A stretch of DNA of 64,000 nt from Schmidtea polychroa (taxonomy: Eukaryota), in NCBI GenBank assembly GCA_044892525.1, contig CM097886.1, positions 27,218,001-27,282,000 on the forward strand. The letters are read 5' to 3'. The notes below the pieces were generated by a model. The model was given only the letters and a program-made list of their open reading frames with translations. It made no database searches and was not told the origin of the DNA. The translations under genes were made by a program, and so were the position numbers. This document shows positions 7,323 to 55,477 of this stretch, piece by piece; positions within the stretch are counted from its first letter, which is position 1, and the number at the start of each line of letters is the position of its first letter.

Positions 7323-8255
7323 GTGATGAGCATTTTATCATTTTAATTGAAAATCCACCATTTTTATTTGTATTCCTTTAATCATAAGCAAAACTGAGCA
7401 TTTGAAAAAATAATAAAAAATGTAAAAATATTTTTTATTTTATAATATTTTTATTGCAGAGTAGAATGTTTGTGAGTTATACAAAATTACATAATAAATA
7501 TACGAGTCTCACGGATATCTACAAAAATTGTAATAAATTGATAAATTAATTTATTTATATAAAATTTTATATATTCCTACAACCAAATCAATAAAATCAA
7601 TAAAATCAATATAAAATAAAAATTCATATTCACAATTCAAAATAATTATTACTTGACTGTAAAAATGCCGGTAAAAAATAACTACAAATTGTGTTTTTAT
7701 TTAAAAATATTATGAAAGAACCCAAATTTTATGAAAGCGACAATAATTGCGCGGGGAATTCGATTGAAAGGTTTCCCGGTTTTGCAATAGTTCTAAAGAA
7801 ATAGTTTTATGAAATTTTGATAGTGGAATAAAGTTGTAAATGTAAATTGAAAAGAATTACTTTATAATATATATTCATTATTACCATTCGAATTCGAATG
7901 GTTTGTTAGGTTTAAGAAATTCTTATTAGACAATTTCTCACTTGGACAACCAAACACTAAGTACCATTTGTATGGGCGCAGGGTCCAGCTTCAACATTTA
8001 GGTAAAATAAATATTTGCACTTAAACATTGAACCAATTTTCGCAACATGTTTTCTATATTCCTTATGATGTCATTAAAATATCAGCACTTTGTAAAATAT
8101 CAAAATTTTGATTAACAGGAAATATTTCGCATAGTTCTTGATAAAAAAAATTTCTAATGGATTTTGATAGAAGTGAAGCATAATTTTTGAATATAAGTAT
8201 AAAAATTTTCAAGAAAAAAATATAAAATCAGCAATTTTAAAAGATTTTCAACTTA

Positions 8256-8421
8256 ANNNNNNNNNNNNNNNNNNNNNNNNNNNNNNNNNNNNNNNNNNNN
8301 NNNNNNNNNNNNNNNNNNNNNNNNNNNNNNNNNNNNNNNNNNNNNNNNNNNNNNNNNNNNNNNNNNNNNNNNNNNNNNNNNNNNNNNNNNNNNNNNNNNN
8401 NNNNNNNNNNNNNNNNNNNNN
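8256..8421. other. Assembly gap (others at 22231-22374 and 48758-48943)
   Basis: Runs of N. Confidence 0.99.
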
Positions 8422-8426
8422 CTTAC

Positions 8427-8921
8427 TTGAGCACTTTTACTTTTTTCTGGATTTTCCATTAAATCCCAAATTTGACTGCGAAGTTTTGCGCATCTTCCGT
8501 TAATGTTTTCCGGCTGATAGTTAAGTTTGTTTAAATAGATTGCTTGAACTTTATTATATTCTTCTTTTGATATATCGTATTTCAAATTGTAAATATAATA
8601 ACAGCAACTCGACATCAAAGATTTATCAATACCCCAATATTCAAAATCCTCCGTCAAACTCATGACGCACATCGTATTCGTATCGTAGAGAACTCCAAAT
8701 TTCAGTAGATGAAGAATTGTAGTGAAAAATTTCGGATGTCTATCAAAGAAATATTCCTCTATATCTGCCTGGAAATCATCACAGTATTTTAGAATTTGTT
8801 GCGAAGTTATTGCCGAATAAAGTCGACACAAACGAACACTGTAGGCTCTTTTTAATATACTCTTCCATGAAACTTTAAACAATTGACCTCCTACATTTAG
8901 ATTTGCAATTTGAAAATGCAT
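8427..8921 (-). CDS. Voltage-gated K+ channel, Shab/Kv2-like: N-terminal T1 (BTB) domain exon (partial gene)
   Basis: LNVGG...LCRL...YCDDF...EYFFDRHPKFFTTIL...MCVMSL.EDFEYWGID...SSCC...LRSQIWDLMENPEKSKSAQ matches Kv2 T1 through the pre-S1 segment. Ends at a GTAAG donor (8426-8422) just before an N-gap. The start is uncertain (ATG at 8921 used; the frame is open to 9077). Confidence 0.85.
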
Positions 8922-10632
8922 ATAAAACGAATTTAACAAACCATTTAAAAAAATACTAAAATTAATTAAAATGCAGAGAGGAAAATGAAAAATATAGTAA
9001 TTAGTTAATAAGCGGAAATCGGATTGGTTGAAAATTGTTAATAATTTATTTCGATTAGCAAGCAATGGAAAAAGCATGGAAAATTATTATGCAAAATTCA
9101 TCAACCACATCAAATTGTGCCTGTTGAATAATTTTATTCCTATCCAAAAATGTTCTAATTTGAAATGGAAATTGCATTACAATAATCATTTAATTTTGTC
9201 AATAAATGTGGATAATTATTTTTTTGTATTATAATGTTTTTTTCCTATATGTGTCTATCATGTCCATCTGATTGGGCTTGAAAACGGTTGTTTCGAAAAT
9301 TCGTGTTAAATATAAATAGAAATTATTATCTAAGAAAAAAATGAAATAAAAGAAATCGATAAAAAGGTCATTGGTGTAAGAGATAAAATATTTTAATAAA
9401 ACTGAAAATCTTTGAATTAATTATATTTATTTAACATATTCAGCGTCACCGACCTCATATGAGATTTCTATTAAATGCTGTTACAATTCCAATGGTAACA
9501 ATCATAATTAAAAGATAAAACAGTTCAAAGATAATCGTCATAAAATCAACCATAAAAACATGGTTTTTGAAACTCTCTATATTAATTTCAACATATTTGA
9601 GATATAATCACGTTATCTCTTTAATCCGAAGTTAATGAATAGATACGAATTTATATTGAAATAAGGAAATAATGCTAGATTTGACATATCAATATTTTTT
9701 AAATTAACCAACTTTCCGCGATCGGATCAATCTGAAATTTTGATAGCGTGCAGTGTTCCTGACAACAAATCTACTTGCCAAATTTCAGCTCAATCCGATC
9801 ATGGAAAGTAGGTTAATCTGGGCTCATAAAATTTGCATAGAACATACAAACATAATTCAGCGAAGTTAATAGAGACGGTAAAAATGAACTGAACTAAATT
9901 GAGTTTCGATGAAATTACTGAAGTCATTCTAAAGAAAAGTTTAGAAATAATTAAGTAAACGGGATGATTATATGAAATTTCATTAGGATAAAGATGAAAG
10001 GACACTTTCTTAAGTATGTGACATCACATCTGACAATGATTAATTTGTTAATATGTTACTTTAGAACTGACATCGACTCAAACCACGTCGAGCTCATCTA
10101 AATATGTTGGATATATAACGGTTTTAGTAGGAAGAAAAATTCTAAATCTGCCTTGTGTTCAATAATCAACAATAAAGATCGAACGATATTGAAACTTTAT
10201 TTGTTACTCAATTTCATACTACCTCTGTTCAAGTCAATTAACAACAATATTAAAATAGCCCAAACAGACTGGCAAACTGTTTCCAAAAAGGAAATATCGG
10301 GAATTCACATCTTCTTGGTGAATTTGAAACTGTTTCATTATTTTGTCTCTTCAACCTTTGTCAATTTTATTTCGTTATTCACCCAGAAAAAATAATATTT
10401 GGAAAATCTACCTGACTTTATATAGGCTAATTGTTCAGGTCAGGCCAAATCTTTCATAAATTAAACACAGTTATTTTGTCATTTTAAATGTTTTGTGTTT
10501 GTCAAAAACAAAATTTGTTTATCCTATAGCAATGATCTATGAGTATAGAATTTTTTAATTAATTAATTAATTAATTAATTTTATCAGATTTTAATTTTCA
10601 ATAAAATTTTACAAATATTTTTTAATGAACAT

Positions 10633-13600
10633 TTAAGTTTTAACATCTTTCATGGCTGATTTGTAAATTTGAATATCCTCTTGGAAAACCTCTAAAGGAT
10701 GTCTTGTCCATCCAATAACTTCTCTTATTTTATCAACATCACTATCTTCATTTCCGGATGTACTGAAGTCCGACTGTCCGGAATCAAATGCATATCTGGC
10801 TTCAAAATAGTTACTAACATTATCCTGTTGTATTTTCAACTTTGTCATGAAGCAAACTAAACAGCTTTTCCCGATATCTTCAAAACAATCTGGACAAAAT
10901 TGACTGAAATCTTCTGGACAAACAAAAAATCCTTCTTTTTCTAAATCTTCACAAATGAGACATCTGTATTTACTAAAGACTTTAACCCAATTAAAAAAGT
11001 AGGGATAGTCACGGCGTAAACTTAAAAGAAAACTGTATTCAGCTTCCAAACGATTTTGTTGAACTTTGAAGATGATGATATTTTTTTTTGACCTCATATA
11101 CCGTTGTCGACCTAATAATAAAGTGTTGTATAAATGGACAATTCTCTGACGTTCTCTTTTTGGATAAAAGTAACCACAAATCACATGTCGAGATCTAGCC
11201 AAATAGCCATTGGATAGAGTTAGAATGTAAATTATGATCGACGTTATCATAAACAACCTTTTATGGAAGTCAGAGACTTGCCGGATATCTGGCGCACAAT
11301 CAGCAAGGCTATAGGTTATATTAAATCCTCCTAAAGCTTTTACTTCTTCCAGTACTGTATCAATCAAATATTTAATAAATCCATCCCCACTCGCAGTAAT
11401 ATTGAAAAATTCATCACCTTTTATAGTCAACTTAATAAGACTTACGTCTCGTATAACGTCGAGTGCTGTATAGAATACTTCTGCAACCAGAAACGTCGTA
11501 AACAGTGAGAGAAAAATCGCTGTAATTTTAATGAAATCTCGGATGACTTTGCTAATCTCTTCGGAGGTATAGAAATTTTGATTGAATAGAACCTTCTTTC
11601 TTTCATAGCTTTTCAACGGTAATAAACTTGTCCTATTCACTAATTTCCGTTGTTTGTCAATCAGTTGAAAATAATTTGTTATATATTTGTTGTCATAGTC
11701 GATGTCGACTAAATATTTCTTACAATACGAAAACGATCGGAAAATGACCAGCATCAATAGGATCTTCAACACGACCAATACTAAAATGATCAAGTCAACC
11801 AGTAGAACTACAGTGTCGGATAAAGTAAATGTAAGCACCGCTGTTCCATGTAATACTGCATCACCATTTATGTTGAATTTCTTTCTAGTAAACATCCAAG
11901 TGACATTAAAATCAAAGATCTCGTTCATAGCAGCAACGCCACTTTTTGTACCCTGATGCATTCCACCGAATCCGTCTTTAGTATTAGCCGCCTCTTGTTC
12001 GTTGGCACATTTTTGGGATTTTTCTAATGCCTTCTGAACATTGCAAGACGAATCCGAGTCAATTTCACTGTAACACATGTCTTTTAAACTAAATCCAAGA
12101 TTCAAGGAGCCCATTATTAAGTTTTGCATTGTTTGGCAAGCCGTTCCAATTGTTTTCTGACAAATTTGGGTTTTCATTAATTCAATGCTTGAGCATCCAC
12201 TGAACATTTTTGTTCTCATTTGACTAGAGATTAGACTACTTTTATTACTAAAGACATCTTTATACTCGTCGATGACTACCATACTCTTTTTAAATTGTTC
12301 CTCCAATTCTTTATATTGACTTCGTAATTTCTGAGTTTTCTGTTGGAATTTTCTTTGTTCACTTCTATCAAGTTTATGAAGCAATTTGGAAAATTTATTT
12401 TTCAGATTTATTTCCCTTGTCAAATTTCCGTTTGGTATGGCTGCTCGAATTTGTTTGGATTGATTGGCCGAATTGTCAATTTCATTATTTATAGGCTTAG
12501 AAGCATTGTAAACTTCTAAGGTTGATTGCTTCAGTTTATTCGAAGACTCGATAGTGTTTATAAGCAATCTTTGCATTGGATTGATCGCGATCCTTTGAAT
12601 GTCTTTTGATATATTTAACGCTACACCCATTGAACAATGAAGTGATAACATCACGGCTTGTATATTTCCAGCAATACAAGCCAAGGGACCGACAGCGGTT
12701 ATTCTTGCCAATTCCGCCATTAAAAACGCTCTTCCAGCTTTCATTCCAAGATTCGGTATCAACAAAATTGCAACTGTGCGAAATTTCGTAGATTTGATGA
12801 AAGCAAAAGTGAATGATACATACGTTGTATAATAGATTACATCAACTAAAGTTGTCGACACTTGAGACTGACCTTCAATTGCAGTGGAAAAAGCTGTGAG
12901 AAATAAATTCGCTATCTGGGAACCGATAAAGGCTTTCGCAAAAAACCGAAAAACTACAACAGTATATGGTGGATCTTCGTCAAAAATCGCTCGTTCAACT
13001 ATTGGAAAGTATGTCTTCAAAAGCTTTTGAATGAAGGTCGTGGCGTAGATTTCTTTGACATGTCGTAAATATGGTGTTCCTTCAATTACTTTTCCAATAA
13101 GGTTTGTCTTTTCTATTTGGGTGCGCCTTTTCATTTGATTGAATTGATTTTCTTTGGTTGGTGGGACTTGCAGCGGAGTTCCACGAGACTGGAGTTCCAA
13201 ATGCCTCGTTGGGATATATGATGTAAAAGAAGCAATGCCTATATTTTCGCCATAAATTCCTTGGATCATTGTTTTAATTGATGTTGAAATTAAATGAAAA
13301 ATAATAATTATCGAAATTTGTAACATTAAAAGCAAAACAGACAAAACAATTTCTGTAGTTAAAGCTCGAAAGATAATATTTTCAGTAAGTCTAAATCTAC
13401 AACCTTCATTATAATATCTTTTTAATGCACTTGGGTCATGTTTTGGACAAATTATGGTTTTCGCTCTATCACAACAACTTAAAGGAGCCAACGCGACCAA
13501 ACCAGGTTGGTTAAGGTATTTAAAATTTGCTAGCTCATAGTAATCAACTAAAGAAACCCATTTAATGTTAAACCAGTCAGTCGGTCCAGTCACTCCACAA

Positions 13601-14097
13601 CACTTTGTTCTTTGCTGCATTTTATCTATCATATCCTTATCGAAATTGTAATCAACATTCTTCGAGTAACTATCATTTTTTCCATAAAACCTCATCCTTG
13701 CGTAAAGCTTATGTTGTATATCTGTCTGTAAAAGCCCGATCCCATCAATCATATGAAGAATTGCTGAAATGTTCAATACTATAAAGATACAATGACACAA
13801 ATAAATTGGTCGTATAAATTTCCATAGAAGTCTCCTCGCTTTGATATTAATAAAAAGTCCAAAAAGAAGCATTGAGGCTATAGCCAAAAGAAAGCAGTCA
13901 AGACTGACACAAGTCATACATGACAAAAGGGTATCATAATATTGCAGCTTCAGGTATGCAGCGAATTCATAATTCATTGGCATTAGGGGCAAATGAAGAA
14001 TTAGTAAAAATCCACTAAATAATATCAGACAACCTGAAAAAGCTAATCCACAGTAAATTATTAAAGTCTGTCTAACAACATCCACTTTGATAGCCAT
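10633..14097 (-). CDS. Intronless fusion ORF, 1154 aa: peripherin/ROM1-like tetraspanin (about aa 1-290) + DCST1/DCST2-family DC-STAMP protein with C-terminal C4C4 RING-like domain
   Basis: N-terminal part: four hydrophobic segments and an EC2 with IDKMQQRTKCCGVTGPTDWFNIKWVS, APLSCC, EGC (PRPH2-like). C-terminal part: FRTVAILLIPNLGMKAGRAF..GPLACIAGNIQAVMLSLHC, DIDYDNKYITNYFQLIDKQR..LLPLKSYE, YFYPKRERQRIVHLYN, and CLIC..CPEDFSQFCPDC..CLVC, all DCST1/sneaky-family motifs. One uninterrupted frame. Confidence 0.92.
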   Translation of the reverse strand: MAIKVDVVRQTLIIYCGLAFSGCLILFSGFLLILHLPLMPMNYEFAAYLKLQYYDTLLSCMTCVSLDCFLLAIASMLLFGLFINIKARRLLWKFIRPIYLCHCIFIVLNISAILHMIDGIGLLQTDIQHKLYARMRFYGKNDSYSKNVDYNFDKDMIDKMQQRTKCCGVTGPTDWFNIKWVSLVDYYELANFKYLNQPGLVALAPLSCCDRAKTIICPKHDPSALKRYYNEGCRFRLTENIIFRALTTEIVLSVLLLMLQISIIIIFHLISTSIKTMIQGIYGENIGIASFTSYIPTRHLELQSRGTPLQVPPTKENQFNQMKRRTQIEKTNLIGKVIEGTPYLRHVKEIYATTFIQKLLKTYFPIVERAIFDEDPPYTVVVFRFFAKAFIGSQIANLFLTAFSTAIEGQSQVSTTLVDVIYYTTYVSFTFAFIKSTKFRTVAILLIPNLGMKAGRAFLMAELARITAVGPLACIAGNIQAVMLSLHCSMGVALNISKDIQRIAINPMQRLLINTIESSNKLKQSTLEVYNASKPINNEIDNSANQSKQIRAAIPNGNLTREINLKNKFSKLLHKLDRSEQRKFQQKTQKLRSQYKELEEQFKKSMVVIDEYKDVFSNKSSLISSQMRTKMFSGCSSIELMKTQICQKTIGTACQTMQNLIMGSLNLGFSLKDMCYSEIDSDSSCNVQKALEKSQKCANEQEAANTKDGFGGMHQGTKSGVAAMNEIFDFNVTWMFTRKKFNINGDAVLHGTAVLTFTLSDTVVLLVDLIILVLVVLKILLMLVIFRSFSYCKKYLVDIDYDNKYITNYFQLIDKQRKLVNRTSLLPLKSYERKKVLFNQNFYTSEEISKVIRDFIKITAIFLSLFTTFLVAEVFYTALDVIRDVSLIKLTIKGDEFFNITASGDGFIKYLIDTVLEEVKALGGFNITYSLADCAPDIRQVSDFHKRLFMITSIIIYILTLSNGYLARSRHVICGYFYPKRERQRIVHLYNTLLLGRQRYMRSKKNIIIFKVQQNRLEAEYSFLLSLRRDYPYFFNWVKVFSKYRCLICEDLEKEGFFVCPEDFSQFCPDCFEDIGKSCLVCFMTKLKIQQDNVSNYFEARYAFDSGQSDFSTSGNEDSDVDKIREVIGWTRHPLEVFQEDIQIYKSAMKDVKT

Positions 14098-14409
14098 TAT
14101 ATAAATAAATAATTAAAATAATTAATATAAATAATGAGAATAATTAATAAACATATTGATAACATTATATCTGCAATTATTTTACTACAGAAAAATGTCA
14201 TTGGACCCCTACACCAGCCTAAAAGACAAAGATCTACATCCGACAGTTCTTGTGGATAATTCGTTTGAAATCAGATTTTTTGAAACTACAACAATTTCTT
14301 GGTGTCATGAAGACTTCCTATGTAATGGTATTGATAGAATTTTTGTTGCACTATTTCAATGAACTAAATTTTAATATGGATTTTAATAAATAAAACACAT
14401 GGTCATCGT

Positions 14410-18624: not shown

Positions 18625-19126
18625 AAGCATAATTAATATGTAAGGAAATATAAAGTAGTGAGCTACTATATGGAGCAATGAATTATCTAGTGTGTCATTT
18701 TTACGATGCTGACACAATAACCGTAACACTTTATTGCTTTCATTTGGGGAAGCCACAGTAATTTTCGTAGGTCTTCTACGACCCTTTTTCGATCGTTTTA
18801 GCCTTGTTCACTTGATATTCTTAGTCTCTGGAATCCAATTTATATAGTATATACATTCGAAGTATGCTCACTGGGTACCTGGGTTAAAAGGAACAATGAA
18901 ATTCCAATTAAATTGGATTCCAGAGACTAAGAATATCAAGTGAACAAGGCTAAAACGATCGAAAAAGGGTCGTAGAAGACCTACGAAAATTACTGTGGCT
19001 TCCCCAAATGAAAGCAATAAAGTGTTACGGTTATTGTGTCAGCATCGTAAAAATGACACACTAGATAATTCATTGCTCCATATAGTAGCTCACTACTTTA
19101 TATTTCCTTACATATTAATTATGCTT
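18625..19126. repeat. Near-perfect inverted repeat: arms 18625-18840 and 18910-19126, 69-bp spacer
   Basis: The arms are reverse complements apart from one 1-nt indel that I found. The left arm is bracketed by a 14-bp direct repeat TATATAGTATATAC (18607-18620 and 18841-18854). Confidence 0.95.
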
Positions 19127-20790: not shown

Positions 20791-21166
20791 TGCGTCTACT
20801 TGTAAACGATTTTAATTTATTTTTGTATTAATTATATGTCAAACAAGCTTTGCAGCAAGTTTCAAATTTATTAAAAACACAAAATGAGAATTTCCCTTTT
20901 AAATCTGTCTAAGAAAATATTTTGATTTATCTGCATGCTGATTGGATCCTTGTAATTTTAAAATAATTTTAGTTTAGTTTTTTACATTTTTTTGTTGAAA
21001 TTTCTGTAATCGCTGTGGAAATATTGTGCCAGGTTTAACGTTTCTATTCTGCTTCTATGATTATAAATGAATTTTTTGCACTATTGTCAACCGGAAATCA
21101 TTCCCGCAATTTCACTTGGTTTCTTTTCGGAATTGATTATTGGTTGTTTAGATTCGATGAATATGT

Positions 21167-21991
21167 CAACGGTGGGCAAATGCGGCTCTTAGAGCCGCAT
21201 GCGGCTCTTCGTTGAGTAAACTGCGGCTCATTGATAATTGAATTCTTGATAATCGAATTCGATTTTTTATTTTGAAATTTTTCACTAAATGTTTTGAGAA
21301 GAAAAAGTAAACGAATACAGTGAAAAATTGGAAGAATTGCAAGCGGATTTCAAATGTAGGTTTGAAGATTTGAAAAGTTATAAATCTACATTTGCATTTT
21401 TTGTGAACCCATTTATTTGTGATATTATTGAAGATGGATTTCCAATTTCTGAAGTAATACTTGTTAAAAAAGCGGTTGGGGAATTGGAGTTATTAGATAT
21501 GAAAGAGGACCAGGCTTTGCAAATGCACCATAAAGTTACTTCTATAATTGAATTTTGGAAACTCGTACCAGAGGCAAAATATCCACACTTAAAACAAGCT
21601 GCTTGCCGTCTAATTTCAATTTTTGGTACAACATATTGTTGTGAATCTTTGTACTCCACAATGAAGTTCGTAAAGTCGAAATATCGTTCACAGTTGACCA
21701 ATCAGCATCTTACAGAATTGCTGCGAACAGCTTTAACAAAGTATACACCAAATTTCAAAGATTTGACCAAAAGTCTTCGTTAATTCAAGAAATTTTATTA
21801 CTTTTTATTAATGGATTTTTATGTTTGTTACTTAATGTTTGAAATAATTATTTTGTTTTTTTTTAATAGCGTTTAAGTCTCTTTAATCAAATTAATGAAA
21901 TAAAAAAAAATATGTACTTTACTATGGTGGCTCTGTAAAAAATAAATTTTCGGAAAATGGCTCTTATTGAACCCATGCGTGCCCACCCTCG
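21167..21991 (+). mobile_element. Non-autonomous hAT deletion derivative (825 bp) retaining the transposase C-terminal dimerisation domain, copy A
   Basis: TIRs CAACGGTGGGCA and TGCCCACCCTCG; TSD GAATATGT/GCATATGT (7 of 8 match). ORF 21328-21783 (FWK..YPHLKQAACRLISIFGTTYCCESLYSTMKFVKSKYRSQLT). Near-identical to 30935-31759. Confidence 0.92.
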
Positions 21992-22139
21992 GCATATGTC
22001 AATAAAATGGTTTCGGATTCTCATTATGCACTGGTTGCTTATATAAGAAAAATATTAAAATTTACCAATTTCTACAAAACCTAAATTTCTTTTCAATCTC
22101 ACAATATTTACTTCAATAAAGATCTTTTTAAGTTGTATG

Positions 22140-30229: not shown

Positions 30230-33200
30230 TTATTGAACAGCAAAAAAGTCACTTGCCATATAATGCCCATATGCATAACTTTTATTTTTCCCCACCCAAA
30301 CACTTTTATTATCTGAGTTGGTAAGTGCAGTTTTTTCATTTTTTATGGTGAATAGCTGGTGATTTTTGCTAGTTATTCTAGTTTGAAAAAATTTGATTAG
30401 TGGTATAACATTCCAGGTACGACTGATGTTTTGTGTCACTACCTTTCAATGTTACTCCTATAGCTTTCTCTTGTCTCGTCATCACCTAACATGCTATAAC
30501 ATTTAGGTCTAAGAAAAACCCACTCGTTATATTTAAGACCTTTATTCTGGTCTTTGAACTTTCCAATGACAAGGTTCTTACTGTATAAGGGATGAGTAGG
30601 ATCATAATTAGAAGTATCTAACAAATTATCTCGGATCATGGCTGGTTCAAGAACATGAAGTTTACAGTTAATAACTTCAAGGAAAAATGAATCCGTATCA
30701 CCTGCAACGATATTAATTTTACAGTTGAATTCGTTACGATATTTCTGTAACTCTTCATACTGCAGCTGATACATTCTAAGTTTCGATAGATCAAGTACAG
30801 ATTGTCCAATGTAGCTGGGTCTATCTAAACAAATAGCTTCCTTATTTAGCTAGACTGATACTAAGTCATTGTCAATTTCATAAGTCCTTTTAAACGTTGG
30901 TTTAGATGTATATGTAATATATGTATGTATATAGCAAGGGTGGGCACGCATGGGTTCAATAAGAGCCATTTTCCGAAAATTTATTTTTTACAGAGCCACC
31001 ATAGTAAAGTACATATTTTTTTTTATTTCATTAATTTGATTAAAGAGACTTAAACGCTATTAAAAAAAAACAAAATAATTATTTCAAACATTAAGTAATA
31101 AACATAAAAATCCATTAATAAAAAGTAATAAAATTTCTTGAATTAACGAAGACTTTTGGTCAAATCTTTGAAATTTGGTGTATACTTTGTTAAAGCTGTT
31201 CGCAGCAATTCTGTAAGATGCTGATTGGTCAACTGTGAACGATATTTCGACTTTACGAACTTCATTGTGGAGTACAAAGATTCACAACAATATGTTGTAC
31301 CAAAAATTGAAATTAGACGGCAAGCAGCTTGTTTTAAGTGTGGATATTTTACCTCTGGTACGAGTTTCCAAAATTCAACTATAGAAGTAGATTTATGGTG
31401 CATTTGCAAAGCCTGGTCCTCTTTCATATCTAATAACTCCAATTCCCCAACCGCTTTTTTAACAAGTATTACTTCAGAAATTGGAAATCCATCTTCAATA
31501 ATATCACAAATAAATGGGTTCACAAAAAATGCAAATGTAGATTTATAACTTTTCAAATCTTCAAACCTACATTTGAAATCCGCTTGCAATTCTTCCAATT
31601 TTTCACTGTATTCGTTTACTTTTTCTTCTCAAAACATTTAGTGAAAAATTTCAAAATAAAAAATCGAATTCGATTATCAAGAATTCAATTATCAATGAGC
31701 CGCAGTTTACTCAACGAAGAGCCGCATGCGGCTCTAAGAGCCGCATTTGCCCACCGTTGGTATATAGCCTAGAAGCCGAATTGCATAGTGGCAGATTCAG
31801 GCGTCTTTTCAGATTCTCTACGGTTTTTTGCCGCAGAGACTATTATTTAATAACTTATAATAATTTTTATCCAAGGCATTACTCGATTCCGCCGTAAGTC
31901 GGGTATTGGTATCGATTTAATCTTTAAAAATATTATCGTTTGTGAATTTAATTGCCCTATGTACATTACTTAATTTTACACCAAGAGAAAGAAAAAGCTT
32001 GAGAAGTCTCCAATGAAGAACATAATTCTTATTGGGATGATGTGTAAGCATCAACTTCTCAACTTTAGAGCCAGATGGACACATCTTTTCAGCGGCAACT
32101 GGAAAATCATTCAATTTGTCGTGAATCACATCAGGAATTTCCAAATCAACCTCCAAGGTATATCCAAATGGAAGTACTTCCAAATCTGCAGATTCACAAA
32201 AATCAATTATTTTATTTAATTCTTCTCTATTGGTTACCCACTTAAAATCCTTATATGGAAGTTTTTGGCTTAAGGCCCACATATACAAATTATTTATATC
32301 AATGTAAAAAAGTTCTGCATTGTCGGAGGATACTACATGATGTTTGTTAACAAATGTTAATCCACCACGGATCCCCCTTCGAAAAAATTATACATTTCCA
32401 TATCTTGCATAAGCTCGATAGGAGATTTCAAAGTCATTAAAGCTGAACTCCAACTCAAACCTGGAATGCCCAAGAAATTAAGAGATTCAAGTCGATTATA
32501 TGCAATAGATTTGAACGAAATTGTTGAAAATAGTCAGCTAGTAAGAAAACATCCAATTTAAGATGTAACATCATGTAATCAAACAATGATCTACAATGAA
32601 ATTCTTTCCAGATATGTTGTGCCTTTTCATATTCATCGACCGTGACTCATTCCCAAATTGGTGGTAAGTCATACGTATCTTTTAAAACTTCTAAAGAAGT
32701 TGCAAAATTATATGTGAATATCCCCTTTGAATTAACAATAGTCTCTCTAAATTCAGCTGATGTTAAAGGCAGAGATGTCAGTGTTTTTACTGCATCATTT
32801 AAAGTGGAACTAACACATTGACAAGAATCGATAAATTTAATGCTTAAACTATAAACTCTTGCCGTTAAAGTCAAAAACTTTTCGCTGCTGGTAGGAATAC
32901 AACTAATATCCCAATTTTTCATTTCATTTAAACCATATTTAAGAATATGATGTAAATCATATCCACTTTAATTATGAAAAATTACAGGCATGATAAACCT
33001 AATTTGTCTTGAAATATTACATTTGGAACAAGCAGCCCCCAAATATTTACCCGTGTAATGATCCTGATCGTTAAATGGGTTTTCTAATAGTTTATTGCAC
33101 TAGTAACAAATGGTTGAAGAACGAAAGGATCTTTTCTGGTCAGAAGAAAGAAATTCCATTTTCTTTTTGGAATCATTTAAGAAGTAAGGTAAAACTATTT

Positions 33201-45000: not shown

Positions 45001-45659
45001 ACCGAACTGTAATCATTAATAATATTTTGTGTAATACATTACAATGTTTCATGAATTTATAATGACATAATGCAAACAATCAAAAATTTATTTACTTTTC
45101 TTTGTAAATAGTGATTTTTGCTGAGTGAGATTAGAGAAATCTTCCTCTGTGTTTCAAAATGATGTTCTCAAAGTATTATCAAAGGTTCTTTGTGATCTAA
45201 GTCTCTTTATCGCAAATTTAATGAATTCCTGTACTAGTGGTTCCGTTTAAGTTCTGTATCGTATTGATTGAAGTTCTGAATTCCTTTAAGTAGTTAAGTC
45301 GCCCTGGATAAAATTTTTAAGAGTTAAAAGTTGGTCATTACTAAACAAATTTTACCTGGATGGAATTTTTAAAAGTTAAGCGACTGATCTAAACGGCCGC
45401 CTTATATAATATTTTTCGTCCAATCAGGACTTCGTTGGGGTGTATTTTCTATTTTTTCCTTGTTTTTTGGGTTTTTATTTGTTTTGCTCAATTTATTTAT
45501 TTATTTTATTCATTTATTTCTTTTTCTATTTTTTCCTATTTTTTAGTAAGTTTTTATTGTTTATTCCACGTATGATTGTTGTTTTAATTCTTTTGTTTTT
45601 ATTTATTAATTTTCCTATTTTCTTATTCATTCCGCTTCCCGTTATTTTGTTATTATTTT

Positions 45660-46570
45660 TGTTAGGTTCGATGGGTATGTATTCGAACTAACACAAAATG
45701 TTTTCTGACTCCAAAAAATTTATGACGCGTGTAGGTAAATAAATAACAAATATGATTTAAAGATTTATTAAAAGTAAATATATTTGTACACAATTGTTGA
45801 TATTACAAAAACAACCTAGCTGCTTCTAAAAGGACAGAAAACGGTTATACAACCCAGAAATCGGTTAACCCCTTTTAAATTACATCTACAACCAGACAAC
45901 ACAAAAAGATACGTGCTGACGTTACGATTCCCTTTATTATAATGTTTTTAGGTGATGGAATATATTTATATAAATAAATAAATATATATATATATATGAA
46001 AATCAATAAATACTAACTAATTAATTATTTAATTCCTTTAAATGGCGAGATGAACCACCGATTGGTTATAGATACTCCTACAAATTTGCTCTCTTTTTCT
46101 TCTCAATACTCCAATAGGTATTGGGTCTTAGTTATAGTGTTGCAGAAATAAAAAATTCCACGATAATTTTTGATTCTCCTTCCGATCAATAAACTAAATG
46201 TCAAAATAAATATGGAATGTCGAAAAATGTGAATTGTCCAATGAGATAGATACTAGAATTTCTCTCAGTCTAATTTTAACTATTCCTTTCTTGATCGATT
46301 CTTACGTGTACGATTTTTCTCTCTCCGTCCCTCCACTCAATTTTTCAACTAGTATTTATATTAATTTTATTTATTTTAATCTATTAATAGTAATTATTTG
46401 ATTACTATTTTTATTATAAACCTTTTTTTAGTAATTATTTATTACTACTTATATCCTAATTCTAATTTTAGTAATTATTTTTCTATTTTAGGTAATTTTT
46501 AAATACTATTTTTTATTAATTATTATTTAATTCTACAACTTTTGATTCCGGTCCCTACTGAACCCCAACA
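45660..46570 (-). repeat. 3' LTR (911 bp)
   Basis: Termini TGTTAGGTTC..GAACCCCAACA; adjacent PPT; visibly related to the solo LTR at 57650-58638. Confidence 0.85.
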
Positions 46571-46830
46571 TGTCTTCCCCCTAACAAGATTTTCGTCCCG
46601 AAAATTAAAGCGGTAAAGACAAGACCATTGCAGCTGATACATAAAAATAAAAATAATAAAAATATATGTATAATGCAAGCAAAATCAACACCAAAATCAA
46701 ATTAGTCAAATATTGTTCGTAAAGTAAATGTTTGTCAATTTGAATAACTGGATTGGATTGAATTGTCGAAGGTGCTGGGATTGAGGACGTATAGCAAATT
46801 GCTAGGTCCATTGAATACATAACCGAATTG

Positions 46831-47559
46831 CTAATATTTTCTCCTTTTCATGGCCTTGGCACTTTCGTTACGGATCCTTTGTTCTACTATGTCTGGTCTG
46901 TAACTGACCAACAAAGTCTCCCGTGTACTTACTTCTTTGTACACAATTGAGGAGATGATGTATGAGCCCTCCAATACTCCGTAATCGGGGAAATTGGATA
47001 CGGCTACTTCATGGATTGGGCCTCCGTCGTATTCCTTGATACGCGGTTTCCATTTGCTGTCGGGTCTCTGCCACCAACTAGGATCTTCTCTATCGAGATC
47101 TTCCCGAATTTTGATGGAGTTGCCCCTTTCGACGAACTCGCCTTCCTTCACGATAATAGGGTCTCCTGCAATCGTGGGTTTGAGCTTTGTTGCCAATATC
47201 TTGGTCAATGCAGGATCTGGTGGCTGATAGTGGGTTTCTAAGAGATCGTCATCCTCATCCTGGATGGATATCCTCGGCATTTTCTTTTTTGTACTCTTAG
47301 AAATCTCCTTCCTTTTTGTAGAGGTAGGGACATTTTTCTCTTTGTCCTCTTTCTGGGTGGGTTCCTTCGTTGTTTTCTTTTTGAATTTTAAATTTTGTAG
47401 CCTAAGTAGGGGTGCTACAGCTTGGGGTAATGCTCCTCCTTCTGCTCCTTGTTTGGATTCACTCAACGGGGCCAATGCTTTGAAGATCTTGGTGACCCGT
47501 TCAACTAGCTTTTCTGCCGGCGGTGATTTTTCTGTTTCCATTTTAGCCGAATTCACCAC
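46831..47559 (-). CDS. Retrotransposon accessory ORF, Lys/Glu-rich, unknown function (first ATG about 47541)
   Basis: Intact 242-codon frame between the DEDD-like ORF and the PPT; basic stretches (FKKKTTK, KKKMPR, MKRRKY); no family recognised. Confidence 0.6.
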   Translation of the reverse strand: MVNSAKMETEKSPPAEKLVERVTKIFKALAPLSESKQGAEGGALPQAVAPLLRLQNLKFKKKTTKEPTQKEDKEKNVPTSTKRKEISKSTKKKMPRISIQDEDDDLLETHYQPPDPALTKILATKLKPTIAGDPIIVKEGEFVERGNSIKIREDLDREDPSWWQRPDSKWKPRIKEYDGGPIHEVAVSNFPDYGVLEGSYIISSIVYKEVSTRETLLVSYRPDIVEQRIRNESAKAMKRRKY

Positions 47560-48629
47560 TCTACCGTCATTGGTAAGGGTGACTTGGAGGCAGTTATCAT
47601 CCGCGCTCTCGCAAGTGGTATAGTCTCTTTACCGGTGACTGCTTTTGCCAAATATGCCAAACGGTAATACCCGTTGCATTTCTTTAAGTCCCTAATTTCA
47701 AGGCATTTAGCTGCGCCTAACTCACGGATTCCGAGTGCGCGTTGCATTGGAAATCTGATTACTTCCAATAGGTCTTTTACTAACAATCCCACGATGATTT
47801 TCCAGTCGCAGATTTTCCTAATTCTTTCGGCACAGTCTTCTCCGTCAAACTGCCCGATTATTTCCCTCTCGGTCATACCATGCGCGTGCGATTGGTAATG
47901 TTTGACCTGTGCTCTGGGAGTAACTCTAGTGTTGAGGATTAGATCGCCATTGAAATGTGAGATTGAAATGCCCACAATTGCCGGTTTTAGAAATTGTGGT
48001 AGTGTAGCGTAGTGGGCTGCTACGAAGATGGTGAGGTTATCCTCTTGTCTTGGGTCCAAACGCTGTCTTACGAAAGACTTAAACGTTTTGATGTCATTAT
48101 CATTGACATTGTATGTCCAGTTTGGGTCATTGACCCATCTCGTTTGTGTTTCTCTGTGAGGTTCCAGAATTTCCATTGCTACGATGGTATCTATTCCTTC
48201 ACATAACAGTGAGATGTTCTTTTCCCTTCCATCCCCGTTTTCGATTTCCAGGGTTGTATGCTTTTGCAGCAAAATAGGGTTTGTGGCACCAGGAACATAA
48301 ACCGTAAATGGTTTGTTAATGGCGTGTATCCACAGGTGGTTGGTCAGACTATGTCTGCCAAACTCAGGCATCACCTCGGTAAGCCTAATACTAGCGTTAT
48401 GCTTGTCCGGGATTCTTGAGATAATCATTTGACGCTTTGGGGCCTCGTCAAATTTGAAATTATTGGGTATGCCTGACCAATGTCCGTAAAACCAGTGCCT
48501 TTGTCCTTTTCTGCTTTGATCCGTTACCTGCTTCTACAGGTTTTTATAGATAAGTTTTTCCTTCAGTAAGGTCGTAGCACGTATAATGCTATGTCTTCCT
48601 TGGTATTGGAATATTGGATGGCTCTGCAT
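47553..48629 (-). CDS. Retrotransposon accessory ORF with REX4/ISG20-like (DEDDh-fold) C-terminal domain lacking the catalytic acidic residues; one premature stop at 48534-48536
   Basis: ISISHFNGDLILNTRVTP..VKHYQSHAHGMTEREI..KIIVGLLVKDLLEVI..IRE..YRLAYLAKAVTG parallels REX4 VSIVN.NG..L.D.YVKP..VTDYRT.VSGI..KILVGH...NDL.VL..IRDT..SLK.LA...LG. Homolog in copy 2. Confidence 0.7.
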
Positions 48630-48958
48630 TCCTGAAATAAACCATAAAATTAACCATAATATCAGATATACCGATATGCCATAATAGGCTAAAAAGATAT
48701 GCATGAGTCTTATTATAAAAGATCTACATATGCTGAATTTTAATGCTACCTGAAGCTNNNNNNNNNNNNNNNNNNNNNNNNNNNNNNNNNNNNNNNNNNN
48801 NNNNNNNNNNNNNNNNNNNNNNNNNNNNNNNNNNNNNNNNNNNNNNNNNNNNNNNNNNNNNNNNNNNNNNNNNNNNNNNNNNNNNNNNNNNNNNNNNNNN
48901 NNNNNNNNNNNNNNNNNNNNNNNNNNNNNNNNNNNNNNNNNNNGGGAGTCTGTAATTG

Positions 48959-49877
48959 TCATAATTGCGACATCAGTACTCCATCGTAAGCCCTTATGGC
49001 TTGTCTAAAATATAGCTTGGTCCAAATACCCATAACTATCAATGTGGTTATTAGCGATAGTACGGCCGATACTGTAATCCATACCCCTATGGGTATTTTC
49101 AGAATATATCCTGCATTAAAGTTTGTGATGGCATTATAATCACAACAGTTTGTCGGGTTTGGGGTCGTTTGGCAAGATATTTGTTTGATAGGTGGCAATT
49201 GTCTAAGATGTTGCCACATCGCGGGATGTATCACCATGTTCTCCCTGACTACTTTTGGTGGTATTTTCGTTATAACTGGCTTTTCAGAGGTAATATCTCC
49301 TCGAATACCTCGAACCACTTATCGTCCTGCCGTTTCCTCGGACTATAGTATATAACTAGAACCGAATATTCTACGGACTGATTTAGATACATTTCTTCAG
49401 AGGGAGAGTTCTGGTCTAACCATAATGTTTCTCTCGTGGTTGCTCCGTCTATAATACTGACTTTCAGCTTCTCCTCCCTGCTAATTTGCTGGCTAAACTT
49501 TACTTTATCCTTTTCGTAGGATATCGATATACGTTTTGTGAAATCCGCCGTCCTTAGGATCCAATTTGATACGTGATATGTATACCAACCACTCTGATAT
49601 AACCTTGATGCTGCGATATGCAGTTTATAATCCGTCTCGGCTTTTAAATCATATAAATCCCACTCTTTTTCTTCTGAATTGAGTTGGCGGATCCGCAAAT
49701 ACTTGTTGTAAAAATGTAAATTGTGAGTATGCTAATTCCGTGATACGTTCTTATAAAATGTAAGTGTTCCACTTGCATAGCCATAGGCTGAAAATATGCC
49801 TTTTTATCCCTTTTTGCCATTGCCAAAGTCATCATACAGCTTATTATCAACAAAAAGGTTACTAATTTTGGAACACC
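48959..49877 (-). CDS. env-position ORF: signal peptide + FN3-like ectodomain + transmembrane helix + short tail; in frame with integrase, two frameshifts
   Basis: After RYPLRSR comes GVPKLVTFLLIISCMMTLAMA (signal-like), then LYDLKAETDYKLHIAAS and LNQSVEYSVLV (FN3-like E-F strand motifs), then IPIGVWITVSAVLSLITTLIVMGIW (TM) and RQAIRAYDGVLMSQL*. Confidence 0.7.
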
Positions 49878-50167
49878 CCGTGATCTCAATGGGTATCGGT
49901 GTTCTTGTGCTTCTTCGGTAGTGTTTGGTTTCACCTGTTTCTCTAGTGCTTTTACTTTTGAATTTCCAGAGATCCCCTTTGTTGGGATTTCGCACTTTTT
50001 ACACCGATTAGCATGTACCATTATTGGTTCTGCTTTTTGATTGGCAACAAGTTGTAGTATGAGGTTTGTATCTGTAGTTCTCAATATCTCATATGACCCT
50101 TTGAAATTCCGCATGAGTTTTGGTGATAAGCCTTTCTTGTTATAATGACTTTCAATTAAGTCGTGTT

Positions 50168-52376
50168 CTAATGGGAAAAACTACATTTTTTGTCACTTGC
50201 CAGCTTCTTAAAATCCGGTTTGAATAATGTTATTGCAATGCGCAAGCAGTGTTCCAATTTCTTACATCCTAAGCGCATTCTCTGTTTGTTCATAATAATG
50301 TTCATTGTCGAGAATGAGCTTTCACAAACATACGTTGAAGCAAACATGGTGAGTAGAGTTAATGCGATTTCACGAACAATCGGGTAACTGAACGCCGAAA
50401 GTATCCAAAAACTTCCAGGCTAACTTGTTTATCTTGTAACTGCGTCTTTAAATCCCCATTGCTTTGAAGATCTATAAGCTGAAGCAAGAAAGTGCTTTCG
50501 TCAATCCATGTATACGTTTCAGCAGCTACACGTGCAATACATCTTTCTTTACCGAGTGAGAAAGGGTTTGTAAGGAACAGGAGCAAAGTATCGTTAAATG
50601 TGAAGTTCTCAAATCGCTGTTTAAAATTTACAATCAATTTTCGAATAAAACAACTCATTTTAGCAACACATTCAACATTCAAATTAGATTTTGTTGCCTC
50701 TGCGAGGGTTGGAAAATGTAAAAATTCCCGACTTTCAATATCTTGTTCAAAAAATATTAGCTTATAATATTAGCTTATTAGATTATAATACGTTATAATA
50801 AAGATCGGCAACATTGTGTCCTCTTCCCTGCAACTTTGTGTTCAAATCGTTCAGATGGCCAGATATATCACATAAAAATGCAACATTCATCTTAAACTTA
50901 TCATCATCAAGTTTCTCTTTGAACACTGCTGCCTTTATTAATTTGCTAGTCGACAAAAACATTTTCACTTCGTCTTGTAGAGACCAGAGTCGTTGAAGTT
51001 TACTGAGCCATCTAACGTCATTGTGTGCTAATAAATCGCCATATTCAGCTTCAGTAAGAAATGATTTGAAAAGTCTATGTTGGAGTGATGAAGTTGATCG
51101 AATAAAGTTTATAAGTTTGATTGCGCTAGACATAGTATCAGCTAATTCTTCTGATAGTTGAGCGCACAGCACAGATTGGTGTATTATGCAATGAATTGTT
51201 GCAATGCATGGATTGTTATCAGCAAGCCTTTTTGATAGCCCATTCACTCTGCCATTCATGGCTGGTGCTCCATCAGTTGTCAAAGAGACCATTTTTTGCA
51301 AGTCGATTTGATTTTGAACAAAAAACATATGTATTATTTCGTTAATATCATTAGCTCCTGTGTGCTCCATCAGTGGCAGTAAACATAACAATTCCTCATA
51401 AAAGACATCTTTATAAAGAAACCGAACGTAAACGGCCAATTGTACCACATCATTTCCATCGGTTGATTCATCCACGGCAATTGCATATTTATCCACTGAT
51501 TTAAGCGCGGAGCAGAGGATCTCGAATGATTCCTCACCTAATATATCCACCCGTCGTCCGGTGGTCGTGTCTGATAGTGGAATGGTGTTGATAGTCGAAA
51601 TTATCTGCGCTTTTTCATTATCGCTAAATACTGAGTCTATTACTTCCCGCATACATTCTTTTACTATTTCAGCATCACTAAATGGTTTCTTATTCTTTGC
51701 AAGAGTCCATGAAACTCTCAGGAAGGCCTCCATTGCTCGTTCTTGATTCGATATGCTTTTTGTTAATATAAGTCGTGCACGTTTTAATGAAGATTGAATC
51801 GATTTTATTTTATCACGCCTGATAGTGGTATTTGGTGGGTATTCTTTCTCAAATTTGCTGTGCTTAGTTTCAAAATGTCTTTTCATATTCGACACTTTGT
51901 AAACTGCCACGCTTTCGTTGCACAACAAACAAACAGGTCGACTTCCAATTAACGGTATAACAAACAAAAATTTGTCTGTCCATGAATCATGAAATACTCT
52001 GTTCTCTGAATCAACTTTACGGTTACTGTTCATAAGTGGCATTGCATTCTTTAATTTTTTTAATTACAAAAAAATCAATTTTAATGTATTAATAAAATAT
52101 TTCAAATTGATGCGAATCTGCATTCAAAAATTATGGGGTAAGCAAGAAATGTATATCGCTTAAATATATTTTTTAAAAAACAACAAACCCATATTAGCTG
52201 ATCTATTTTAATACGCCTTAAGGTCAAATATTATACATAAAAAAGTACCTGTGCGCTTTTATGCAGATATCACCAAATATTTTTATATATGTGTAATATT
52301 CCAAGATATTGAAAGGGCCTTTTTCAAATTTCGGCGGGCTTGATCAGGCCCGCGGGCCGCCAGTTGAATATCCCTG
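50168..52376 (-). mobile_element. hAT (SPIN/Buster/GTF2IRD2-like) transposon: 5' TIR and frameshifted full-length transposase; 3' end lost
   Basis: TIR CAGGGATATTCAACTGGCGGCCCGCGGGCC ending at 52376. ORF 50783-52042 has CLLC..RHFETKH, IAVDESTD, TTDGAPAM, IHCIIHQ and VRWLS. It continues via 50359-50682 to MFASTYVCESSFS..FSH* at 50168. Confidence 0.93.
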
Positions 52377-52688: not shown

Positions 52689-53413
52689 CTAGTGTTTAGT
52701 ATATTGTCCAGATATGCTGTAACTAGCTATAGCTGCTGTTTTCATGCATTTTTTAGAAAGTGTATCTATTTCTTTGTCAGTAAGGCCTATTTCTCTTAAT
52801 GTTTTATTATTTTCATTATCCCATGTACCTAAGGTATCTACAACTAATGCGGATAATGTAATTTTTGTTTTATTTGCTTTACCAGTCTCTAGAGCCAGGC
52901 TTGTAGTTAGTTAGCATTTCTAATTGCTACAAAGTTTTCTAATGTGTCATAAGGCACTTTTATGTCTAATAGGTGTATTTTATTATTTCTGTTAGATTTA
53001 ATAATTAATTATGGTCTTAATGTTGTCGTAACTCTTGGTAGTGATTTCTCTATATCTACTTGGAATTGCTTTGATTTTAGGTATTCTTGTTTAACTTCTA
53101 ACAAATGGTTATGTTTGTTTCTCCTTGCGTTTTGAGTGTGTGTGCAATGGTTAAAAATGTGTGCCTTTGTTTCCCAGTCTATTTTACATAACCTACATAG
53201 TGTATTTTGCTTTTCTTTATGCCTATTTATGCTATAGTTTAGACTGAGAATATTATTTTTTGCTTTAACCAAAAAGTAATATTGATTAATCTGTTCTTGT
53301 TTTTTATTGGGGTATGCTGATATATTATTATTTCCTATTGTTTTGGCTATATGCCCTTGGTGTATCATAGTATACCATTTTTCAGCATACAACTTACTAG
53401 TTAATGTATGCAA
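52689..53413 (-). pseudogene. C-terminus of an RLE-type non-LTR retrotransposon (CCHC finger + restriction-like endonuclease)
   Basis: CRLCKIDWETKAHIFNHC..KHN..LRP*LII..LLDIKVP..DTLGTW, followed by an AT-rich tail. Confidence 0.85.
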
Positions 53414-53419
53414 TATTGA

Positions 53420-55210
53420 AGATGTGTTGGATTGGGAATTTGAACACTTCCAGTAAATCTTTTACTAACAATCCCACAATGATTTTCCCATCCCAGATTT
53501 TTCTGATTCTTTCGGCACAGTTTTCTCCATCAAACTGTTACTTCACTTTTGGTCATACCATGCTCATGCAATTGGTAATGTTTGACCTGTGATCTGGGGG
53601 TAACTCTAGTATTAAGGATTAAATCGCCGTTGAAATGCGAAATCGAAATTATCACTATTACTGGTTTGATGAATTGGCGTAATGTAGCGTAATGAGCTGC
53701 TACGAAAATGGTAAGATTATCTTCTTGTCTGGGGTCCAAACGCTTTCTCACAAAAGATTTGAAAGTTTTAATGTCATTGTCGTTGACGTTGTACATCCAA
53801 TTTGGCTCGTTGAACCATCTCGTTTGTGACTCCCTAACATGTTCTAAGATCTCCATTACGACGATGGTGTCCATCCCCTCACATAATAGTGAGATATTCA
53901 TTTCTCTCCCATCTCATTTTCGATTTCGAGCATTGAATGCTTTTGAAGCAAAATAGGGCTAGTGGCGCCAGAAACAAAGACCGTGAATGTTCTGTAAATG
54001 TCGTGAATTCACAGGTGGTTAGTTACACCATGTCTGCCAAACTCGAGCATGACATTGGTTAGCCTAATGCTGTCATTGTGCTTGCCCGGGATTTTTGTTA
54101 TTATCATTTGGCGTTTTGGAGCTTCGTCAAATTTAAAGTTGTTGGGAATAGCTGAGTAATAGCCGTAGAACCAATGCCGTTGCCCTTTTCTGCTTTATTC
54201 GGTTATTTGCTTTTCAAAATTTTTATAAATCAACTTCTCCTTGAGTAGGGTGTTAGAACGTATAATGCTATGTCTTCCTTGGTATTGTGATATTTGATGG
54301 CTCTGCATTCCTGAAATAAAAATGATTAACTAAAATATCAGATATTCATATGATTTTTTCCTCGGGGGAGTCTGTAATTGTCATAATTGCGACATCAGCA
54401 CTCTGTCGTAAGCACTTATGGCTTGTTTAAAATATAGCTTGGACCAAATGGCCATAGCTATCAGTGTGGTGCTAATGATAATACTGCCGATACCGTGATT
54501 CATACTCCTATGGGTACTTTCAGAATGTATTCGGCTTTAAAGTTTGTGGGAGCATTGCAATCACAACAATTCGTCAAATTTGGAGTCGACTGACAAGATA
54601 TTTGTTTGATAGGTGGTAATTGTCTAAGATGTTGCCACATCACGGAATGTATCACCATGTTCTCCCTGACTATTTTTTGTGTAATCTTTGTTGTAAAAGG
54701 TAATATCTCCTCAAATACCTCGAACACCCCGTGATCTCGACGGGTATCGGTGTCCTAATAATTCTTCGGTGATGTTTGGCTTCGCCGGTTTCTCTATCGA
54801 TTTCGCTTTTGAATTTGCTGGAATACCCTTTGGTGAAATTTTGCACCTTTTACACCGGTTGGCATGTACCATTATTGGTTCTGCTTTTCGATTGGCGACT
54901 AATTGTAGAATGAGATTTGTATCTGTGGTTCTCAATACCTCGTATGGCCCTTTGAAATTCCGCATGAGTTTTGGTGATAAGCCTTTCTTGTTGTAATGAC
55001 TTTCCAACATCACCTGGTCTCCAACCATCATGCCATGTTCCTTGGATTTTAGATCATAATAATCTTTCGATGCTTCCTGATTGAATTTTATACTGAACCT
55101 GCTTTAGCCCATGCTTCCTGCATCCTTTCCCTCATATCCATTAGATAATTATCTTGATCTAAATACTATCTTGCTTTGGGGAAAAATAACAGGTCCATTG
55201 GCATTTTACT
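53420..55210 (-). mobile_element. Ty3/Gypsy element copy 2: integrase tail, internally deleted env-position ORF, DEDD-like ORF
   Basis: Collinear with 47750-50155, with many synonymous differences; lacks the segment corresponding to 49316-49874 of copy 1. Confidence 0.9.
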
Positions 55211-55477
55211 TTGCCTCAGGTAGAGTTTTATAAAGGATTATCGAAACAAGATTTTCCTAAACTGAGAATATTTGCATCAGAAATGTTGTCAATTTTTGGC
55301 AGCTCATACATATGTGAACTAACTTATTCAAAAATGAAAAATGCAAAAACGAATAACAGAAATAAACTATCAGATAATCATTTGCGTGATATTTTAATAA
55401 TTGCAACGTCAAAAATAGAACCAAATATTACAAAACTGGCATCTTCCATGCAAGCGCATCCATCGCACCACCACTAA
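55211..55477 (+). pseudogene. hAT transposase C-terminal dimerisation-domain fragment
   Basis: EFYK..FPKLRIFASEMLSIFGSSYICELTYSKMK..RNKLSDNHL..IEPNITKL..QAHPSH. Confidence 0.88.

Follow-up and report, generated by a model that had tools for sequence, protein, structure and literature searches.

An errantivirus of Schmidtea polychroa encodes, behind its integrase and in one long reading frame with Gag, Env and Pol, a second membrane protein that stands beside the element's own gB-type fusogen and is under purifying selection. In two of the five families that carry it, this protein ends at a stop codon set in a readthrough context, with an exonuclease-like ORF in frame behind it. Taken as a whole, we put at about 0.5 the probability that the protein is an FN3 attachment factor beside the fusogen and that low-rate readthrough extends it into a disabled exonuclease-like protein.

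Two broken copies and the complete element

The window, as we call the whole stretch of 64,000 nucleotides that was analysed, contains two copies of the element (Table 1), the first of which is a broken 3' remnant. On the minus strand, its integrase C-terminal frame (49647-50180) passes through RYPLRSR into a hydrophobic signal-like stretch, as the initial annotation had read it. The next minus-strand frame (49273-49731) contains LYDLKAETDYKLHIAAS and LNQSVEYSVLV, and a third (48962-49318) contains the stalk, the transmembrane helix and a tail of 20 aa. The copy thus occupies three reading frames and carries two frameshifts; the annotation had correctly seen that the beta segments are shifted, and had counted one frameshift. 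In copy 2, a deletion of ~580 nt has removed the signal peptide and both beta domains, and its integrase end is matched by MLVIN_C (E 0.011) and SH3_Tf2-1 (E 0.013) in Pfam. Both copies end within the integrase on their 5' side, where they adjoin sequence of hAT-type DNA transposons. No match to the family's gag, env or RT was found anywhere in the 64 kb; since both copies are truncated on their 5' side, the gB-type env is not represented in the window.

Table 1. Parts of the two element copies in window coordinates
Feature	Position	Strand	Remarks
C-terminal end of integrase	49878..50180	-	ends in RYPLRSR (49878-49898); element cut upstream
Putative internal signal peptide	49815..49877	-	hydrophobic core; small residues at -3/-1 by eye
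Beta domain 1, FN3-like	49549..49814	-	frameshifted in copy 1
Beta domain 2, seven-stranded Ig-like/FN3-like sandwich (predicted)	49285..49545	-	model, Foldseek, VIA
Stalk containing Pro and Cys	49097..49282	-	second frameshift at its start
Predicted transmembrane helix	49022..49093	-	hydropathy 2.0 over 19 residues, natural copy
Predicted 20-residue cytoplasmic tail	48962..49021	-	reading frame
TGA CAA TTA stop, CARYYA readthrough context	48953..48961	-	sequence; accessible text of PMC4132726
Splice-acceptor-like site	48630..48680	-	branch-point-like CTGAT, U-rich tract, CAG two bases before ORF2 ATG
ORF2, broken in copy 1	46831..48629	-	beta-rich N-part, exonuclease-like domain, long charged tail
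ISG20/REXO4-like exonuclease domain of ORF2, lacking the first catalytic motif	about 47620-48035	-	sequence comparison
3' LTR region, degraded	45600..46600 (approximate limits)	-	LTR comparison
Copy 2, older remnant	53428..55218	-	retains TGA CAA TTA; signal and the two beta domains lost by deletion

The sequence adjoining the cut 5' sides of both copies consists of hAT/SPIN-like transposase remnants (zf-C2H2_12, DUF4371; 50168-52063 and 55190-55477), and a 3' fragment of a non-LTR retrotransposon (zf-RVT, E 1.6e-4; 52689-53461) lies at the 3' break of copy 2. Elsewhere in the window, a tetraspanin-like N-terminal part (E 7.5e-13) and DC-STAMP (E 2.6e-34), two membrane-fusion-related domains, share a single uninterrupted frame of 1,159 aa (10633-14112, minus strand), and a BTB_2 (KCTD-type) domain (E 7.6e-19) occupies a frame of 276 aa (8253-9083, minus strand). 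Inverted repeats of 837 nt (21161-21997 and 30929-31765), 99% complementary and 8.9 kb apart, are likely a young DNA transposon, and at 18625-19126 two arms of 218 nt form a perfect inverted repeat around a spacer of 66 nt.

Across the genome, the DNA search yielded at least 40 scored matches and the protein search at least 151. The initial annotation had looked to a consensus for a continuous ORF; natural copies already provide one, with the complete extension of 322 aa continuing the integrase frame, free of stops and shifts, at 18 of 29 other loci (8 of the remainder have one stop, 3 are frameshifted). Among the ~150 matches listed, five place the extension inside open frames of 3,366-3,369 aa, four of them without a stop inside the match. 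One frame of ~3,370 aa comprises gag, env, PR-RT-RH-IN and then the membrane protein: zf-CCHC is found in gag (E 7e-9), a signal-led fusogen of the gB type between gag and protease (PF24664, E 1.9e-86), and rve and Integrase_H2C2 were detected by Pfam in a natural copy. LTRs flank both long-frame copies that were tested (988 nt at 99.7% and 1,010 nt at 99.4%), and the one copy spanned from LTR to LTR gives a full element of ~14.7 kb; in three further pairs of stretches, LTR pairs were looked for and found in none. With gag carrying zinc knuckles, then a gB-type env and then pol, LTRs at both ends and a recent multi-copy spread (two long-frame copies, at least 151 matches), the element is a GAG-ENV-POL errantivirus of the Ty3/gypsy group with its fusogen upstream of pol, a layout that has already been published.

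This layout corrects the initial annotation, which had placed the FN3-like protein in the env position. As the gB-type env lies upstream of pol, between gag and protease, the FN3-like protein is a second membrane protein, not env; the annotation's suggestion of an accessory gene is supported. By hydropathy, the 5' 2,592 aa hold only four hydrophobic segments (two in the gag region, the env signal and the env transmembrane helix), and the 3' part holds two, the signal and the transmembrane helix of the added protein. A ToxA_N match (E 0.14-0.24) is at chance level.

Anatomy, fold and selection of the membrane protein

The membrane protein is present in five families of elements in this genome, A to E, whose relations to one another rest on pairwise identities. 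The extension of family B is 44% identical to that of A, the window's family, and decayed; families C, D and E have open frames of 3,334, 3,419 and 3,437 aa with the succession RYPLRS, signal, three beta domains, stalk and transmembrane helix. In all five, hydropathy and N-glycan sequons fit a plan of signal, ectodomain, single transmembrane helix and tail, in line with the type I anatomy proposed earlier. The tail is not conserved between A/B and C/D/E. It ends in E-T-W-V in D and E-T-F-V in E (L092:4200-4259, L089:4300-4360) and in E-T-R-L in C, which resemble PDZ-binding ends, and in S-Q-L in A and T-T-L in B. A motif resembling the post-integrase RYPLRS, RYNLRS or LYNLRS, also precedes gag in families C and D (L070, L092); this type of motif is reminiscent of the chromatin-binding motif of foamy viruses. 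We rejected RYPLRSR as a furin site, as it is not R-x-x-R with the right spacing and is predicted to be cytosolic. A second family D element follows the first at ~1.4 kb in a tandem arrangement (L092:7503-9998).

The structural model of the A/B protein is weak overall (mean pLDDT 50); within it, domain 2 is predicted as a seven-stranded sandwich, with pLDDT blocks mostly at 63-87. Foldseek returned for this domain a list dominated by FN3 chains (best E 1.5e-3, none below E 0.001), and in VIA, whose best Z-score was 7.9, FN3 and other Ig-like sandwiches tied. Domain 1 is of low confidence in its own model. A profile comparison over 129 columns (E 5e-5, probability 68%) weakly links the two A/B domains with the final two of C/D/E, and in it the second half of domain 1, together with domain 2, aligns to the sister-family domain that superposes on fibronectin. 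In the model of sister family D two domains are resolved, one of which superposes on fibronectin as an FN3 domain would (Z 9.2, rmsd 2.0, 77 residues), and Foldseek lists 242 PDB matches below E 0.001, led by CD45 and fibronectin FN3 (E 2e-6). The Pfam FN3 family, looked for at E 1-10, gave no match, and Atlas matches for the membrane protein all lay below 0.9. Together, the models moderately support an FN3/Ig-like fold for the window's family, and the fold is better supported for the sister family. Structure prediction thus returned the kind of sandwich that the initial annotation had read from sequence motifs, and it also agrees with the view that the protein is not a fusogen: the confident domains are small beta-sandwiches, the viral matches of the family D model are phage-tail FN3/Ig repeats and decoy receptors at 5-15% identity with no fusogen among the viral rows listed, and the element's fusogen family, PF24664, matches another region than the post-integrase protein.

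The membrane protein may be a captured host protein; capture had been suggested by the initial annotation. No host or viral donor emerged: relatives outside this genome's elements numbered zero both in a 5.8-billion sequence set and among 1.84 billion representatives, the PDB held no relative by sequence (best E 0.84 and 0.56), and searches of the planarian's own genome, which score a limited number of candidates, returned among the matches listed only strong element-like ones, so that a host donor may yet lie in this genome. CEACAM IgV matches from the PDB sequence search and a match to a GCN5 fragment were dismissed as being at chance level.

Selection was estimated from 136 pairs of 17 stop-free copies in four divergence bins, after one locus with an indel and four that were nearly identical had been set aside; the pairs are not independent. 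The extension has dN/dS values of 0.17-0.26 across the four bins, 0.09-0.19 against older subfamily copies, 0.25 between A and B and 0.16-0.37 among C, D and E; a single pair of decayed B copies gives 0.57. For comparison, integrase lies at 0.03-0.08, env at 0.06 and ORF2 at 0.11-0.17; in pairs comparable to those of the extension, the values are 0.08 for integrase and 0.06 for env. The membrane protein is thus under purifying selection, as the initial annotation had surmised from the two window copies. Its observation that these copies differ in the stalk and transmembrane region mainly at synonymous sites is true per site; by count, about half of the differences are synonymous, with 16.5 synonymous and 15.5 non-synonymous changes in 66 codons of the stalk (dN/dS 0.21) and 4 and 6 in 29 codons of the tail (dN/dS 0.44).

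Fold neighbours and rate of change also bear on another reading, in which the protein acts on the producing cell, either imitating the ectodomains of cytokine receptors or receptor phosphatases, as a decoy or in signalling, or blocking re-entry. EpoR, IL receptors, CD45, CD148 and neogenin are indeed among the neighbours, the membrane protein evolves faster than env or integrase (dN 0.54 between A and B, against 0.09 for integrase), and host-modulating domains occur in giant planarian relatives, according to the accessible text of PMC6431247. However, the neighbours are tied, so that no single donor is indicated, the tail is short and differs between the two groups of families, and translation together with Env and Pol speaks for a role at the site of particle formation. 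We therefore regard action on the producing cell as rather unlikely and prefer a role beside the fusogen.

The stop codon and the reading frame behind it

What the initial annotation overlooked is the leaky-stop context at the end of the tail and the exonuclease-like ORF that follows in frame. Once two duplicates and one row truncated by the locus end are removed from 45 rows, 42 distinct loci remain; at 41 of these the frame ends in TGA CAA TTA, at the other in TGA CTA TTA. The same context is found in family B, despite its divergence, and in copy 2; in further family B loci it is kept in two of three, the third reading TCA. By way of background, it occurs at 4 of the 2,481 TGA triplets of the window. 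According to the accessible text of PMC4132726, UGA-CARYYA yields ~15% readthrough in a mammalian reporter, and the TGA CTA context promotes readthrough as well. Across three diverged lineages, a 16-nt block on the stop does not vary while the codons before it differ, and the frame behind it is open for 761 aa in four copies. The intervening linker of 66-67 codons is free of stops in all three lineages, with length differences of 3 nt, and at 29 of 37 family A loci as well as in B and B2. Shuffled sequences left it stop-free in 10-18 of 5,000 cases, and its other frames hold 8-9 and 3-4 stops. With a CARYYA context, an open in-frame ORF downstream and conservation of both, the sequence suggests that TGA CAA TTA is probably read through into ORF2 in families A and B.

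ORF2, the 761-aa ORF behind this stop, has a homologue in families D and E that forms an ORF of its own (E 3e-27 between A and E). Its central domain belongs by homology to the ISG20/ISG20L2 group of DEDDh exonucleases, with E 2e-10 against ISG20L2 for family E and E 0.084 for a direct comparison of family A; the N-terminal part had no match in the Atlas. The catalytic D-x-E and H...D motifs are kept in D and E (as D-A-E) and absent from A and B, which read A-A-H for D-A-E and lack the His of H-S-A-L-E-D, so the A/B domain is predicted to be catalytically disabled.

A rival reading of the stop alone takes it for an ordinary terminator, with ORF2 made solely from spliced or trans-spliced RNA and the linker and CAA TTA as by-products of RNA or DNA signals. 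A U-rich tract and YAG lie 2-8 nt before the ORF2 ATG at 12 of 12 matched loci (A, B, D, E) and in both window copies, the acceptor pattern having matched just one of six A loci and three of four B loci tried. Moreover, in alignment the free ORF2 of D/E begins at the ORF2 ATG of A/B. The linker shows no third-position bias: the three codon positions have 24/15/21 differences, compared with 128/106/220 for ORF2. U-rich DNA also reads as hydrophobic peptide. Since the linker diverges unlike coding sequence and contains further conserved blocks of DNA, it may be conserved for the sake of splicing; random substitution, moreover, leaves it stop-free in 1-6% of trials. A conserved hairpin after the stop was looked for and not found (z -0.6 to +0.75). 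An ordinary terminator would nevertheless leave unexplained the invariant block on the stop, the match of frames, the stop-free linker and the 3-nt indels. Nor was a spliced contig seen: public contigs, from a run that is possibly RNA, cover the region and contain no splice joint, though such contigs can show neither absence, nor strand, nor level. We hold it improbable that the stop is an ordinary terminator. Given the lack of third-position bias and of a hairpin, and the shared acceptor-like site, spliced RNA is the likely main source of ORF2, to which readthrough would contribute a minor further product in A/B. Families D and E have double stops, 379 and 432 nt before their separate ORF2, and C has no ORF2 (six loci), so readthrough is not needed across the clade.

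Known systems and proposed function

GAG-ENV-POL errantiviruses with an HSV/gB-type envelope are known in Platyhelminthes from Chary and Hayashi (PMC13524379, accessible text). They include Smed_errantivirus_4, which likewise is a multi-copy element of ~15 kb with a gB-type env between gag and pol; counted by eye, 35 of the first 50 aligned env residues are identical to those found here. The main text mentions neither fibronectin, FN3, immunoglobulin, readthrough nor accessory, the seven supplements mention neither fibronectin nor FN3, and the text searched gives no account of a membrane protein behind the integrase or of ORF2. In the giant planarian elements Burro/GYPSM1 (PMC6431247), env also lies in frame between gag and pol within a single polyprotein, and there is accessory cargo; these elements, however, exceed 30 kb with an ORF of 4,873 aa, and the accessible text has no mention of fibronectin or readthrough. 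The bdelloid LTR elements Juno and Vesta carry a 3' exonuclease ORF behind pol (ORF3, DEDDy; PMC5408684, accessible text), whereas ORF2 is of the ISG20/REXO4-like DEDDh type, has lost its first motif in A/B and is in frame with a membrane protein. Soybean SIRE1 extends its polyprotein past a single in-frame stop by suppression, but it is a plant copia element with an env-like ORF behind the stop (PMC2194720, accessible text); here, the membrane protein precedes the stop and an exonuclease-like ORF follows it.

Thus, the element type is published, and neither the second membrane protein nor the leaky stop was found in the literature searched; an FN3 protein in such elements is undescribed there (Repbase, bioRxiv supplements and the 2018 planarian genome paper lay outside its scope), as is any fusogen partner for gB-type errantiviruses. 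To our knowledge, accounts of envelope-carrying retrotransposons name one surface protein per element. For the choice of cell, class III fusogens often rely on a partner, and herpesviruses have gC and gD as separate attachment proteins beside theirs. An Ig-like/FN3-like surface protein accompanying a gB-type fusogen is the model that we apply to the present protein, although gC and gD share no sequence link with it and are products of separate genes rather than of a gag-env-pol polyprotein. By this analogy, the odds are about even that the protein assists the fusogen in attachment or cell contact; as FN3 folds serve many functions, the attachment role is a conjecture drawn from context.

A possible mechanism would start from the two predicted internal signal peptides, which would direct Env as well as the FN3 ectodomain to the ER and leave Gag and Pol cytosolic. 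Signal peptidase would free the FN3 protein from the polyprotein; as both derive from the same polyprotein, it would be made one-to-one with Env and in the same membrane. ORF2 would come mostly from spliced RNA, and readthrough would add a minor, membrane-tethered form. A two-part envelope from one gag-env-pol polyprotein, made up of the gB-type fusogen and an FN3 attachment protein, with a leaky stop that in this lineage hangs a dead RNA-binding exonuclease on the inner side of the latter as a link between membrane and element RNA, is a bolder version of this scheme and a doubtful one. The same topology could also mean that the second signal simply anchors the Pol end to the budding membrane and that the ectodomain is a tolerated passenger: in such a layout signal peptidase would be expected to part Gag from Pol, and Pol would therefore need a membrane route into particles. 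Yet the transmembrane helix of Env would already tether Pol, and an ectodomain that is kept in five families under purifying selection hardly fits a passenger, so that this idea, already weakened by the dN/dS values, appears very unlikely.

As a partner of the fusogen, the second surface protein, selected and clade-wide, is a direct candidate for the role, and with such a candidate it can be tested how these elements pass between cells in an animal rich in stem cells. The leaky stop would add a case of recoding in an animal LTR element, in which an accessory ORF appears to have been rewired from a free and catalytic form (D, E) to one that is predicted to be dead and fusable (A, B).
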